Positions 395 to 3,375 of a stretch of 3,375 nucleotides of DNA are shown in pieces. The DNA is taken from the NCBI RefSeq assembly GCF_024298765.1, contig NZ_CP101216.1; one strand, given 5' to 3'. Every line of letters begins with the position of its first letter. Position 1 is the stretch's first letter. The stretch is from Escherichia coli (GTDB lineage Bacteria > Pseudomonadota > Gammaproteobacteria > Enterobacterales > Enterobacteriaceae). The notes under the pieces were generated by a model. The model ran no database searches. It was not told the origin of the DNA and was given only the letters and a program-made list of their open reading frames with translations. The position numbers were made by a program, and so were the translations under genes.

Positions 395-560
395 ATGTCT
401 GCACCGATGCAAAATGAGATAAGCCAGTATACACATCGCTATCGCTCTGTGAACTGGGTCAGGGCTGCGCCCCGACACCCGCACTGACGCGCCCTGGCGG
501 GCTTGTCTGCTCCCGGCATCCGCTCACAGGCAAGCTGTGAACGTCTCCGGGAGCTGCATG
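395..560 (-). other. oriT / bom (basis of mobility) of the ColE1 family, with predicted nic site between 424 and 423 on the minus strand
   Basis: Reverse complement of 417-435 reads TGTGTATACTGGCTTATCT, matching the conserved ColE1/pBR322 nic region GTGTATACTGGCTTAAC. The flanks are near-identical to pBR322 bom as recalled: revcomp of 458-478 GGGTGTCGGGGCGCAGCC, of 500-526 GCGGATGCCGGGAGCAGACAAGCCCG, and of 543-561 ACATGCAGCTCCCGGAGAC. The nick position CTGG/CTTA is from memory of the ColE1 literature. Confidence 0.8.
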
Positions 561-802: not shown

Positions 803-1141
803 ATGAAACGCGAGAAGATGCTCACGATACGGGTTACCGATGAGGAGCACGCCCGGTTACTGGAACGCTGCGAGGGTAAACGACTGGCGGAATGGATGCG
901 GCGGGTCTGTCTGGGGGAGCCGGTTGCACGCACAGGAAAACTGCCGACACTATCGCCGCCATTGCTGCGGCATCTGGCTGCCATCGGGAACAACCTGAAC
1001 CAGACAGCCCGGAAGGTGAACAGCGGCCAGTGGTCTTCGATTGACCGGGTTCATGTGGTGGCCGCACTGATGGCCATCGAGGGTGAATTGCGCCAGTTGC
1101 GGCAGGCTGTCAGGGAACAGGGGGTACGGGATGATAGTTAA
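803..1141 (+). CDS. mbeC: MbeC/MobC relaxosome accessory protein (ribbon-helix-helix nicking accessory protein)
   Basis: Sequence MKREKMLTIRVTDEEHARLLERCEGKRLAEWMRRV... matches the ColE1 MbeC family; the same start (ATGAAACGAGAGAGGATGCTCACGATACGGGTTAC) survives as a remnant upstream of rop in pBR322. Start is ambiguous: 803 has the best SD spacing (AGGGGGAA at 786-793); 818 (MLTIRV..., 107 aa) and 794 are in-frame alternatives. The TAA stop at 1139-1141 overlaps the mbeA ATG at 1131. Confidence 0.9.
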   Translation: MKREKMLTIRVTDEEHARLLERCEGKRLAEWMRRVCLGEPVARTGKLPTLSPPLLRHLAAIGNNLNQTARKVNSGQWSSIDRVHVVAALMAIEGELRQLRQAVREQGVRDDS

Positions 1142-2705
1142 ATTTCATGCCAGGGGGAAAGGCGGTGGAAGTGGCCCGGTCGATTACCTGCTGGGGCGGG
1201 AGCGTAACCGCGAAGGCGCAACGGTGCTCCGGGGTAACCCGGAAGAAGTGCGGGAACTCATTGATTCCACGCCATTCTCGAAGAAATACACTTCAGGCGT
1301 TCTGTCGTTCGCGGAGAAGGAGTTACCGCCGGGTGAACGCGAAAGAGTGATGACGAGCTTTGAGCGTGTTCTTATGCCCGGTCTCGAAAAAGACCAGTAC
1401 AGCATTCTCTGGGTGGAACACCAGGATAAGGGGCGGCTCGAACTGAATTTTGTCATCCCGAACATGGAGCTACAGAGCGGTAAGCGCCTCCAGCCGTACT
1501 ACGACCGCGCGGACAGGCCGAGGATAAATGCCTGGCAGACGCTGGTTAATCATCATTACGGGCTGCGTGACCCGAACGCACCGGAGAACAGACGGACGCT
1601 TGTCACGCCAAATAATCTGCCAAAAGCGAAACAGGAGGCCGCAGAAGCGATTACACGGGGTCTTGAGGCGCTTTACCATGCCGGAGCAATAAAAACGCGT
1701 CAGGATGTCACTGGGGCGCTCACAGCGGCAGGTTTTGAGGTGGTGAGGACAACCAGAAGCAGTATCAGTATTGCCGACCCGGAGGGTGGGCGGAATCTCA
1801 GGCTAAAGGGGGCGCTGTATGAGCAATCTTTTACAAATGGGAACAGACTTCGAGAAGAAACTGAAAGAGCGAGCCGCTTCTACCGAGAACATGCTGAACA
1901 GCGAGTTCAGGAAGCTCGAAGAGTCTGTAGACAAGGCACTGAGCTTAAACAGGCAGAAAATCAGAGACGCTATCAGCGGACATACAACATCCGTGAAACA
2001 GCAACTGGATACACTGAGCGCCACCGTGAGCACGCAGTTCAGCACCACAGAGGCCGAACTGTCCCGGCAGCAGAAAAAACTGCTCTGGCAGGTGATCAAA
2101 GGGCGGATACTGTTTCCGGCGCTGACCGCGCTCAGCGTCACGGGCGGCATTTTCCTGGGGTGCTGGGGGCTGATGGAGTGGCAGGAAAGCAAGATTGCGA
2201 AAAATATCCTGACTATCAGAGAGCAGGAAAACACGCTGGCGAAACTCGAGGCAAAAACCTGGGGGGTGACGTTCGTCAATGGCGAGAACGGGAAATTTCT
2301 GGTGTTGCCGGACGGGGTGAAAGGGGAAAACACCTGGACGGTGGGCGACAAGAACGCCGTGAGGCTGGTCAGGGAGTAAACGAGTATGACGGAACTGGAA
2401 GGGCATTTGCTGAACGCCTTAGAGCATTTGCAACAGGACTATATGCGGCGGCTGAACGAGTGGGAGAGCGCCTTCGCGGAATTGCAGAAGATGCACGAGG
2501 TTACGCAACGGAACAACGCGATACTGAACGAGCGCGTCGTGATATTGAGTCAGCAGGTGCAGAGATTAGCCGGGCAAGTGGATCGCTTGAGTCGGTTATT
2601 TATCGCGAACAACAGCTAAGGGATGAACAGGAGCGTGCCCGGTACAGACATGAGGTACAGGAACGCGCGGCACGGGTTCGGAGTGGGCCATCAATGGAGA
2701 TGTGA
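1131..2705 (+). CDS. mbeA: MbeA/MobA relaxase, MOB-P5 (HEN) family, 524 aa
   Basis: N-terminus MIVKFHARGKGGGSGPVDYLLG places the catalytic Tyr at residue 19 as in ColE1 MbeA. WVEHQDKGRLELNFVIPN carries the H-E-N signature. The C-terminal half is R/E/G/A-rich low complexity, as in MbeA. I chose the 1131 ATG over the ORF-track start at 1083 because of homology and overlap coupling with the mbeC stop. Confidence 0.95.
   Translation: MIVKFHARGKGGGSGPVDYLLGRERNREGATVLRGNPEEVRELIDSTPFSKKYTSGVLSFAEKELPPGERERVMTSFERVLMPGLEKDQYSILWVEHQDKGRLELNFVIPNMELQSGKRLQPYYDRADRPRINAWQTLVNHHYGLRDPNAPENRRTLVTPNNLPKAKQEAAEAITRGLEALYHAGAIKTRQDVTGALTAAGFEVVRTTRSSISIADPEGGRNLRLKGALYEQSFTNGNRLREETERASRFYREHAEQRVQEARRVCRQGTELKQAENQRRYQRTYNIRETATGYTERHREHAVQHHRGRTVPAAEKTALAGDQRADTVSGADRAQRHGRHFPGVLGADGVAGKQDCEKYPDYQRAGKHAGETRGKNLGGDVRQWREREISGVAGRGERGKHLDGGRQERREAGQGVNEYDGTGRAFAERLRAFATGLYAAAERVGERLRGIAEDARGYATEQRDTERARRDIESAGAEISRASGSLESVIYREQQLRDEQERARYRHEVQERAARVRSGPSMEM
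1819..2379 (+). CDS. mbeB: MbeB/MobB mobilization protein, 186 aa, one predicted transmembrane segment (ILFPALTALSVTGGIFLGCWGLM)
   Basis: Lies entirely inside mbeA in the +1 frame, the hallmark ColE1 arrangement. Strong SD (AAGGGGG at 1806-1812) 6 nt before the ATG. Sequence has the MbeB-family character of a coiled N-terminal region followed by a TM helix. Confidence 0.85.
   Translation: MSNLLQMGTDFEKKLKERAASTENMLNSEFRKLEESVDKALSLNRQKIRDAISGHTTSVKQQLDTLSATVSTQFSTTEAELSRQQKKLLWQVIKGRILFPALTALSVTGGIFLGCWGLMEWQESKIAKNILTIREQENTLAKLEAKTWGVTFVNGENGKFLVLPDGVKGENTWTVGDKNAVRLVRE
2386..2619 (+). CDS. mbeD: MbeD/MobD-like protein, 77 aa, predicted coiled coil
   Basis: Same +1 frame as mbeB, starting 7 nt after the mbeB stop with an AGGGAG SD at 2370-2375; nested inside mbeA as in ColE1. 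Assignment rests on position and size; I cannot verify the sequence residue by residue from memory. Confidence 0.75.
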   Translation: MTELEGHLLNALEHLQQDYMRRLNEWESAFAELQKMHEVTQRNNAILNERVVILSQQVQRLAGQVDRLSRLFIANNS

Positions 2706-2805
2706 CCGGGGAAGTGACGAAATCTTGCCATTTTGACCAGTTCGACGGCTGGGGCGAGCGAAACAAATCGTGTGCCGTATTTGTGCATAGCTATGCAACA
2801 TCCTG

Positions 2806-2826
2806 AAAACGCATTTCACGCGTTTT
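2806..2826. terminator. Short hairpin (7-bp stem AAAACGC/GCGTTTT, 7-nt loop) about 100 nt downstream of the mbeA stop; weak candidate terminator in either direction
   Basis: Seen directly in sequence. The U-tract is mostly inside the stem, so termination efficiency is uncertain. Confidence 0.3.
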
Positions 2827-2833
2827 TGGGGAT

Positions 2834-3375
2834 TCAGCCAGGGGAAAACATGGTTTTTTTACTTTTTGAGCGTAAAGACGTGAAAAATCTCGTTATTGCA
2901 CTTGCGATCTTTCGTCGGCGGGCGTAGAACGAAAACAGCTCGCCAGGAAGGCGAGCTGTTTCGGGTTCATTGAGGTCTCTGACCTCCTCAATGTTCCTGT
3001 GGAAACTGTTGAGATCCACAACAGAAACCAGTTCATTCAGTTTGCATGAGCCTTCTGTATTCTTCAAGAATTTTTCAACAGCACAGTCTCCCAGGAACCC
3101 CGAAAAAAACCTGTTTTTGCAGATACTTGCGTATTTGCGAGAATCGTTTGCGGTTGGGGGAGCTGTGACGACGGCGACCGCACGCGTGAGAGTTCCGCTA
3201 CCGGCGCAGAGAGTTTCATCGACAGCGGACACCTGATGAGTTGCCACAAAAACCGTATGTAGCGCGGCTAGATTGGTTGAGTTAGACCTTGGCGGCAGTT
3301 CCCGGTATGTGGTGGCGTGACGGGTGAGATGGTGCGGCGAAGACGCATACGTCACGCAGGCGCGGGTTCTTCCAC
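2834..3375 (-). CDS. Hypothetical protein, 5'-truncated by the window edge (frame stays open past 3375); no recognisable domain
   Basis: A stop-free minus-strand frame of at least 180 codons, ending at a TGA (revcomp of 2834-2836) and convergent on the mob operon. Against it: no ATG anywhere in the frame (the listed start at 3353-3355 is GTG with no SD), and the strong hairpin at 2933-2961 lies inside it. Composition of the central part (KYASICKNRFFSGFLGDCAVEKFLKNTEGSCKLNELVSVVDLNSFHRNIEEVRDL) looks protein-like. Confidence 0.3.
   Translation of the reverse strand, partial: GRTRACVTYASSPHHLTRHATTYRELPPRSNSTNLAALHTVFVATHQVSAVDETLCAGSGTLTRAVAVVTAPPTANDSRKYASICKNRFFSGFLGDCAVEKFLKNTEGSCKLNELVSVVDLNSFHRNIEEVRDLNEPETARLPGELFSFYARRRKIASAITRFFTSLRSKSKKTMFSPG
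2850..2927 (+). CDS. Candidate small peptide, 25 aa (MVFLLFERKDVKNLVIALAIFRRRA), hydrophobic with a basic C-terminus; function unknown
   Basis: ATG at 2850 preceded by AGGGGA (2840-2845); TAG stop at 2925-2927, followed 5 nt later by a perfect GC-rich hairpin. No homology recognised. It overlaps the 3' end of the convergent minus-strand ORF, so at most one of the two readings is likely to be real. Confidence 0.2.
   Translation: MVFLLFERKDVKNLVIALAIFRRRA
2933..2961. terminator. Perfect 12-bp stem-loop (AAACAGCTCGCC, loop AGGAA, GGCGAGCTGTTT); candidate rho-independent, possibly bidirectional, terminator
   Basis: Seen directly in sequence. On the minus strand the stem is followed by TTTTCGTTCT; on the plus strand by TCGGGTTCATT. 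Confidence 0.45.

Follow-up and report, generated by a model that had tools for sequence, protein, structure and literature searches.

Two genes nested in the +1 frame of the mbeA relaxase gene in a small ColE1-type mobilizable plasmid, and the selection on both frames

This locus raises the question whether half of a relaxase gene can also code for two further proteins in a second frame and, if so, which frame is held by selection. The window, by which we mean the whole stretch of 3,375 nt that was analysed, is an entire cryptic plasmid of 3.37 kb, of the pSL476_3 type. An earlier note had placed mbeB and mbeD inside mbeA in the +1 frame, each with its own Shine-Dalgarno sequence. The ORF list and direct translation give exactly the same positions (Table 1), and both Shine-Dalgarno sequences can be read in the DNA. 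The differences 1819-1131 and 2386-1131 both leave a remainder of 1 when divided by 3, therefore both genes lie in the +1 frame of mbeA. Together they make 795 of its 1575 nt dual-coding (50.5%). We are highly confident that the window carries a ColE1-type mob operon: mbeC comes first and mbeA follows, its distal half overprinted in the +1 frame by mbeB and mbeD. The overlap is real and, as the earlier note had also said, it is not new: it is already known for the ColE1 plasmid family, and both the overlap and the roles of the proteins in ColE1-superfamily plasmids are described in PMC5935869 and PMC6118388.

Table 1. Features of the mob region, in window coordinates for DNA and in codons or residues for protein segments
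Feature	Position	Strand	Description
oriT core GTGTATACTGGCTTA	420..434	-	presumed MbeA target; 15-mer identical in ColE1
mbeC	818..1141	+	MobC/NikA-type ribbon-helix-helix nicking accessory protein; final 11 nt shared with the mbeA start
mbeA Shine-Dalgarno AGGGGG	1119..1124	+	6 nt ahead of ATG 1131; read from the sequence
mbeA	1131..2705	+	MOB-HEN (ColE1-type) relaxase, 524 aa; ATG 1131, TGA 2703-2705
MbeA catalytic N-domain	codons 1-229		Y19, H97, E104, N106
MbeA conserved helix	230-285
MbeA hypervariable linker	~286-418
MbeA conserved helical block	419-496
MbeA tail	497-524
mbeB Shine-Dalgarno AAGGGGG	1806..1812	+	6 nt ahead of ATG; within MbeA Leu-Lys-Gly codons
mbeB	1819..2379	+	186 aa, +1 frame of mbeA, MbeA codons 230-417
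MbeB N-terminal part			MbeB_N region
MbeB predicted transmembrane segment	97-115		one segment
MbeB C-terminal part			'AKTWGV.FV...KFLVLP' block
mbeD Shine-Dalgarno AGGGAG	2371..2376	+	built from the final two mbeB codons; adjoins the mbeB stop; 9 nt to ATG
mbeD	2386..2619	+	77 aa, +1 frame, at MbeA codons 419-497; predicted role in mobilization and entry exclusion

We will start with the plasmid itself. Over the whole window it is 99.5-99.9% identical to pSL476_3 and to further cryptic Col-type plasmids of 3.37 kb found in Salmonella and E. coli (NC_011082, NZ_CP123259), which are therefore the same plasmid. They differ from it by single-base changes and by the length of an A-run at 168-181, with 14, 13 and 12 nt in the three records. 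ColE1 (NC_001371) shares the order mbeC, mbeA, mbeB, mbeD with rop and oriT upstream, the overlap of mbeC with mbeA and the nesting of mbeB and mbeD in the +1 frame, with mbeB starting at nt 689 of mbeA in both plasmids. However, ColE1 carries colicin, immunity and exc1/exc2 genes which are absent here, and the replication-control region of the window shows no DNA similarity to ColE1 over about 965 bp. An Rfam scan of the whole window gave no match at gathering thresholds and none at E up to 1, so that the region is not explained by any known RNA element.

In the proximal part of the operon, MbeC matches Pfam MobC (46.2 bits) and a NikA-like family (45.5 bits) and is 88% identical to MbeC of ColE1. 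Its frame has further ATG codons upstream, at 803 and 773; the start given by RefSeq in NZ_CP123259 corresponds to position 818 of the window. A cognate ColE1-type oriT/nic sequence is present in cis with mbeA on the minus strand, in a region 89% identical to ColE1 which lies between rop and the origin. The nic site is presumably found between G424 and C423, a position which we take over from the bom region of ColE1/pBR322.

The mbeA frame is open from GTG 1083 already; its conserved start is found at 1131. Its product reaches 724.9 bits with the NCBIfam model relax_MbeA_E1 (NF047848, cut-off 500), covering residues 1-511 of 524, and 30.1 bits with Pfam Relaxase (PF03432, cut-off 24.6), over residues 51-126 only. 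PMC3447787 gives Varsaki 2003 as the source of the HEN-type assignment of MbeA and describes an atypical motif III, in which H-E-N replaces the three-histidine motif. None of the residues Tyr19, H97, E104 and N106 varies among 17 homologues, and all are present in ColE1 as well as in the window. All of them lie upstream of codon 230, where the overlap begins: the catalytic N-terminal domain is free of overlap, as had been claimed. On the other hand, the description of the overlapped half as low-complexity holds only in part. The fraction of R+E+G+A+D is indeed 0.48-0.63 in the overlapped segments, compared with 0.40 in the N-domain, but at residues 230-285 and 419-496 conservation exceeds that of the control frame, and a structural model shows helices there. 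The AF2 model of MbeA is of low confidence (16-sequence alignment, overall mean pLDDT 55) and served for an order/disorder profile only: pLDDT is below 50 over residues 280-426, there is no secondary structure from about 315 to 420, and helices appear at 240-307 and 421-517. Conservation and model together indicate that residues ~286-418 are probably an unconserved and disordered linker. No solved structure was matched when PDB sequences were searched with MbeB, MbeD and an MbeA profile.

The nested genes are also recognized by protein families. MbeB matches Pfam MbeB_N (PF04837) with 77.6 bits (cut-off 22; 9.1e-22) over 1-52 of 52 positions. MbeD matches Pfam MbeD_MobD (PF04899) with 114.3 bits (cut-off 21.6; 2.9e-33) and NCBIfam plas_excl_MbeD (NF033829) with 123.4 bits (cut-off 60). 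All four mob proteins, MbeC included, score above the curated cut-offs of their families. The families MbeB_N and MbeD_MobD were themselves built from such nested ORFs, therefore these matches demonstrate homology, not translation. Homology searches did not fail for any of the three proteins: identity to ColE1 is 61% for MbeA, 45% for MbeB and 72% for MbeD. MbeB has 172 residues in ColE1, fewer than in the window, and mbeD starts with GTG in ColE1 instead of ATG. All three proteins were reportedly produced in ColE1, in work of Boyd, Archer and Sherratt from 1989. An exclusion factor of ColE1 is how MbeD appears in PMC2831885, which refers to Yamada 1995.

The arrangement is found again in many relatives. 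An intact mbeA with nested mbeB and mbeD in the +1 frame is present in 15 of 17 related loci, which are not phylogenetically independent; they span E. coli to Dickeya and Aeromonas, with MbeA identity as low as 43%. In two loci (L007 and L008) mbeA is frameshifted, and mbeB and mbeD are intact. The mbeB Shine-Dalgarno sequence is kept as AAGGAG, AAGGGAG or AAGGGGG in all 17 loci, and the ATG after it is always at mbeA nt 689. In most loci GGAG adjoins the mbeB stop, and in 14 of 17 the mbeD start follows this stop after 0-6 nt, a geometry which suggests translational coupling. Farther away, a nested pair of +1 ORFs is also found in plasmids of Proteus (MbeB_N 66 bits), Acinetobacter and H. pylori; those of Acinetobacter and Helicobacter stay under the Pfam thresholds. 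The closest known systems also include the mobA/mobB/mobC/mobD modules of the ColE1 superfamily (ColA, ColK, pCS36-4CPA, pUB6060, pHel4). In its distant members the relaxases are longer, up to 660 aa, and for mobA of pCS36-4CPA 'Two entirely and one partly overlapped' ORFs are described (PMC5935869). Non-overlapping mobB or mobD, which would bear on the question of the ancestral frame, were sought as well: both are nested in all the relatives that we examined, as far out as Helicobacter.

Which of the frames is under stronger constraint can be seen from the related plasmids. In the ColE1 clade the diversity of the N-domain is 0.28 at codon position 3, compared with 0.09 and 0.06 at positions 1 and 2. 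Across the overlaps the profile is flat, and in the tail past mbeD the excess at position 3 reappears (0.44 compared with 0.26 and 0.27). We have also translated the same DNA in three frames and determined the mean identity over 120 pairs, given here in the order MbeA frame, mbeB/mbeD frame, +2 control: 0.75, 0.43 and 0.44 in the N-domain; 0.56, 0.48 and 0.40 over MbeB 1-55; 0.28, 0.32 and 0.27 from MbeB 56 to its end; 0.48, 0.55 and 0.37 over mbeD. Substitutions affecting both proteins at once are rarer than expected over MbeB 1-55 (0.38 observed, 0.58 expected) and over mbeD (0.38 observed, 0.53 expected). These comparisons, together with the synonymous randomisations given below, show that selection acts on both frames and keeps them open. 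Dominance shifts from one frame to the other along the gene: it lies with MbeA over the first 55 residues of MbeB, with MbeD over its own span, and weakly with MbeB in the hypervariable centre.

The centre deserves attention. In these central 130 codons, which in ColE1 are essentially unalignable with MbeA of the window, conservation of the MbeA frame does not exceed that of the unused +2 control frame, and its coding status would there follow only from the absence of stops. We give about an even chance to a reading in which control of sequence evolution changes hands along 0.8 kb, from MbeA to MbeB and then to MbeD, and the central ~130 MbeA codons are a pure frame-keeping spacer, near-neutral but never interrupted by a stop. 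If this were true, the MbeA linker would be carried along in the evolution of MbeB. The two proteins may instead diversify together, for example to match different helper conjugation systems or exclusion specificities. A limited literature search found no published quantification of such alternating dominance.

The poor conservation of the centre also agrees with a different view, in which the relaxase is short and consists of the N-domain only, mbeB and mbeD stand alone, and what follows codon ~230-290 of mbeA is either a pseudogene in decay or read-through that is not translated. The limited extent of the Pfam Relaxase match points in the same direction, as do the annotations: PGAP marks only window 1131-1448 in NZ_CP123259, as a partial MbeA pseudogene, and nothing in pSL476_3 and ColE1. 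We consider this view very improbable. The NCBIfam model spans nearly the whole protein, as given above, and the regions 230-285 and 419-496 of MbeA are better conserved than the control frame. Over mbeB the MbeA frame has no stop in any of 16 loci, whereas with MbeB fixed it stays open in 0-0.2% of randomisations with N-domain codon usage (0-8% in within-gene shuffles). The 28-codon tail past mbeD has, besides its third-position excess, an excess of synonymous change (0.37, with 0.24 expected), and for 487 plasmids the pseudogene calls have been reported as errors (bioRxiv 10.1101/2023.11.08.566193).

The opposite view, that mbeA is the only gene and the 186- and 77-codon ORFs are by-products of R/E/G/A-rich codons which rarely make +1 stops, has next to no probability. 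It is true that under synonymous randomisation of the window, with the MbeA protein kept, the +1 frame remains open in 7-17% of cases over mbeB and 27% over mbeD, and that 11 of 17 loci have an open but unconstrained +1 ORF at 1147-1350; ORF length by itself is not decisive in the window. However, when pairs are compared over mbeD, conservation of the +1 frame exceeds that of the MbeA frame in 114 of 120 and that of the +2 control in all 120. The wobble periodicity of MbeA is lost exactly over the nested genes and comes back after them. The position of the nested starts, the Shine-Dalgarno sequences and the position of the stops are kept in all loci, mbeB and mbeD are intact in the two loci with a frameshifted mbeA, and a hydrophobic 19-mer of MbeB (KD at least 1.69), its transmembrane segment, is present in 16 of 16 homologues despite sequence turnover. 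The exclusion function reported for MbeD speaks against it too. The nested genes stand above chance because homology, recurrence in 15 of 17 loci and frame-specific constraint come together.

Taking the overprinted operon as our preferred reading, gene geometry and the ColE1 literature lead us to propose how it may work. One transcript, starting upstream of mbeC, would be read by ribosomes that initiate independently. MbeA would be made at full length, and its N-terminal HEN-type nuclease domain would nick oriT through Tyr19, with MbeC, a ribbon-helix-helix protein, as helper; a flexible linker would connect this domain to the helical C-terminal region. MbeB would be a single-pass membrane protein acting as accessory factor of the relaxosome, and MbeD a small helical protein with roles in mobilization and entry exclusion, its translation probably coupled to that of mbeB. 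The plasmid itself appears to lack a mating apparatus and would depend on a co-resident conjugative plasmid.

The overlap raises no new question; its main importance is in annotation. The mob region has DNA matches in about 3,000 PLSDB records. Small plasmids of this kind are very common, and because of the overlap with two named genes their relaxase is dropped or shortened by automated pipelines. In RefSeq mbeA is truncated, a pseudogene or absent (NZ_CP123259, pSL476_3, ColE1), and mbeA pseudogene calls have been described as an annotation error that can mislead mobility typing and pseudogene surveys (bioRxiv 10.1101/2023.11.08.566193). The RefSeq wording 'missing C-terminus' implies a relaxase limited to its N-domain. 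The locus is also a clean and deeply conserved example of bacterial overprinting, which could test methods for detecting dual coding.

Other ORFs of the window were considered and rejected as genes. The +1 ORF at 1147-1350, within the N-domain, has a conservation of 0.434, compared with 0.437 for the +2 frame. On the minus strand the ORF 2834-3355 (173 aa) has no family match and no RefSeq annotation. The antisense ORFs 1803-2351 and 1945-2406 have no Pfam match and their position and extent are not kept among relatives; stop-complement codons are scarce, which probably accounts for these ORFs.

The relaxase gene mbeA of this plasmid contains two other genes in its +1 frame, mbeB and mbeD, which together give a dual-frame share of 795 of its 1575 nt (50.5%). 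The coordinates and the +1 offset proposed in the earlier note are exact. Each nested gene has its own Shine-Dalgarno sequence, as had been claimed: that of mbeD is formed by the final two sense codons of mbeB, immediately 5' of the mbeB TAA. The catalytic residues Tyr19 and H97/E104/N106 are also found where they had been placed, 5' of the overlap.

Features of the mob region and of the rest of the plasmid
Feature	Position	Strand	Remarks
mbeA	1131 (ATG) to 2703–2705 (stop)	plus	524 aa
mbeB	1819–2379	plus	186 aa; +1 frame of mbeA
mbeD	2386–2619	plus	77 aa; +1 frame of mbeA
mbeC	818–1141	plus	shares 11 nt with the mbeA start
mbeB Shine-Dalgarno	1806–1812		AAGGGGG
mbeD Shine-Dalgarno	2371–2376		AGGGAG
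four-gene mob operon		plus	with rop and ColE1-type oriT on the same plasmid
rop	563–754	minus	Pfam Rop, 127 bits
oriT core	420–434	minus	GTGTATACTGGCTTA; identical to ColE1 oriT

The HMM searches and protein alignments suggested earlier identify all the products. MbeA matches the Pfam Relaxase domain and NCBIfam relax_MbeA_E1 (724.9 bits, cut-off 500, residues 1–511); MbeB matches Pfam MbeB_N (E = 9.1e-22); MbeD matches Pfam MbeD_MobD (E = 2.9e-33) and NCBIfam plas_excl_MbeD (123 bits); MbeC has Pfam MobC and NikA-like matches. With ColE1 (NC_001371) as reference for the four Mob proteins, identity is 61% for MbeA, 45% for MbeB, 72% for MbeD and 88% for MbeC. By all sequence-level criteria tested the region belongs to the ColE1 mob family. 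ColE1 has the same nested layout. The nesting is confirmed and its interpretation supported, and it is an already known feature, as the earlier note had stated.

The comparison set was 17 related mob regions, pMUT2 included, with MbeA identities from 93% down to 43%; the genera represented are Escherichia, Salmonella, Klebsiella, Enterobacter, Erwinia, Dickeya, Citrobacter and Aeromonas. An intact mbeA with MbeB- and MbeD-like ORFs in the +1 frame is present in 15 of them; in the other two (L007 and L008) mbeA is frameshifted, with mbeB and mbeD intact. In all loci the mbeB ATG is at nt 689 of mbeA, 3' of a conserved AAGGAG-like site. Most loci have a gap of 0–6 nt between the mbeB stop and mbeD; in one clade it is 60 nt. 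MbeB varies from 145 to 186 aa and has a single hydrophobic segment of 19 residues (Kyte-Doolittle mean at least 1.69) in 16/16 loci, the sequence of which turns over. Distant relaxases of Proteus, Acinetobacter and Helicobacter pylori each have two consecutive +1 ORFs; a nested ORF gives MbeB_N 66 bits in Proteus and carries MTELETQLL... in Acinetobacter.

The MbeA N-domain also matched 143 Neisseria records. In a cryptic plasmid of Neisseria gonorrhoeae (L021, NZ_CP045710.1, about 1989–3393) the MbeA homologue is divided over two frames, which overlap at about 2473–2618; the downstream part carries an intact MbeB_N gene (72.7 bits) in its +1 frame. The division could be a fixed frameshift, a pseudogene or recoding.

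Nucleotide diversity in the N-domain (codons 1–229) within the ColE1 clade is 0.09, 0.06 and 0.28 at codon positions 1, 2 and 3, the signature of a single gene. Over the nested genes the profile is flat, and 3' of the mbeD stop the position-3 excess is restored (0.26, 0.27, 0.44). We also translated the same DNA in all frames and aligned each frame independently in 120 pairs.

Mean identity of each frame by segment
Segment	MbeA frame	B/D frame	+2 control
N-domain	0.75	0.43	0.44
MbeB 1–55	0.56	0.48	0.40
MbeB 56–end	0.28	0.32	0.27
mbeD	0.48	0.55	0.37

Over MbeB 1–55 the MbeA frame is dominant and both frames exceed the control. From MbeB 56 onwards the MbeA frame exceeds it in only 68/120 pairs, and over mbeD the MbeD frame is above the MbeA frame in 114/120. 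Substitution classes, scored in five moderately close pairs, are consistent with these results: changes which alter both proteins are depleted in both conserved overlaps, and in the centre MbeB-silent changes are enriched (0.31 vs 0.23 expected) and MbeA-silent ones are not (0.23 vs 0.26). Both frames are selected, the dominant one varying by segment. The centre, window 1980–2380 (mbeB codons about 55–186, MbeA about 286–418), is hypervariable, and DNA matches to other clades are split in two around it.

The view that mbeA is the only real gene fails: the mbeD frame is conserved above that of MbeA, the nested genes have conserved starts and stops, the MbeB membrane segment is conserved, and some loci with a broken mbeA keep mbeB and mbeD intact.

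A short or pseudogene mbeA is implied by the RefSeq annotation. In L001, L002, L003 and most other fetched plasmid loci RefSeq/PGAP omits mbeA or gives a partial pseudogene ("missing C-terminus", equivalent to window 1131–1448), with the ORF intact. This reading also fails: the HMM match spans almost the full length of MbeA, its frame is conserved at residues 230–285 and 419–496, the tail 3' of mbeD has single-frame periodicity, and the frame is maintained. When synonymous codons are randomised with the MbeB protein fixed, the MbeA frame stays open in 0–0.2% of trials if codon usage is that of the N-domain, and in 0–8% of within-gene shuffles; over mbeB it is open in 16/16 real loci. The central sequence of MbeA is unconstrained, yet its frame is never broken. 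Erroneous pseudogene calls for mbeA have been described in 487 plasmids (bioRxiv 10.1101/2023.11.08.566193). The reverse is found in a Proteus plasmid (L022) and an OXA-181 Klebsiella plasmid (L017), where annotation covers the relaxase and leaves out the nested genes. The converse test, with MbeA fixed, is weaker, the +1 frame over mbeB being open in 1–33% of trials, so that it is homology and constraint, rather than ORF length, that make the case for the nested genes. The sole increment over what was known is the mosaic of frame dominance, now quantified, together with a relaxase linker that keeps its frame but is not conserved; it is modest and descriptive.

The AF2 model of MbeA has low overall confidence (mean pLDDT 55, below 50 at residues 280–426). 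It has helices at 240–307 and 421–517 and no secondary structure from about 315 to 420, which fits a predicted nuclease domain, linker and helical C-terminal region.

Other ORFs were rejected. A +1 ORF of 67 codons in the N-domain (1147–1350, plus) is shared by ColE1 and open in 11/17 loci, with frame conservation not above +2; it is probably no gene. Opposite the dual-coding region, antisense ORFs 1803–2351 (182 aa) and 1945–2406 (153 aa), both on the minus strand, gave no Pfam match and are likely a compositional by-product; relatives have long antisense open runs at shifting positions. ORF 2834–3355 (minus, 173 aa) coincides with the presumed replication-primer region; neither Pfam nor NCBIfam gives a match, RefSeq leaves it unannotated, and it is probably spurious.

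We find two overlapping conserved frames under two-frame selection, internal ribosome-binding sites, the mbeB–mbeD junction geometry and a matching oriT. From the ColE1 literature, one transcript would have several translation starts. MbeA and MbeC would form the relaxosome that nicks oriT (roles summarised in PMC6118388), with HEN-type catalysis (PMC3447787). MbeB would serve the relaxosome as an accessory protein, and MbeD would act in mobilization and entry exclusion (PMC5935869; Yamada 1995 as cited in PMC2831885); transfer would require a helper conjugative plasmid.

The 3375 bases are a complete small circular plasmid. Cryptic 3.37 kb plasmids known from E. coli and Salmonella, among them NZ_CP123259.1 and pSL476_3 (NC_011082), are 99.5–99.9% identical to it end to end. 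In PLSDB, 137 records have a coverage of 80% or more; pSL476_3 has no replicon type there. A ColE1-type RNAII/RNAI/origin is expected within 2620–3375 plus 1–210 (about 965 bp). This region has no blastn similarity to ColE1 and no Rfam match, even at E up to 1; in ColE1 itself Rfam detects RNAI. Three stem-loops are predicted at 2925–3045 on both strands (z about -5), with a strong hairpin and then Us at the end of the minus-strand RNA; this resembles an RNAI/RNAII control region that has diverged. The A-run at 168–181 adjoins ...CGGATCT, the probable RNA-to-DNA switch of the origin. The run has 14 nt here, 13 in NZ_CP123259 and 12 in NC_011082, and its variation accounts for most length differences among the near-identical plasmids.
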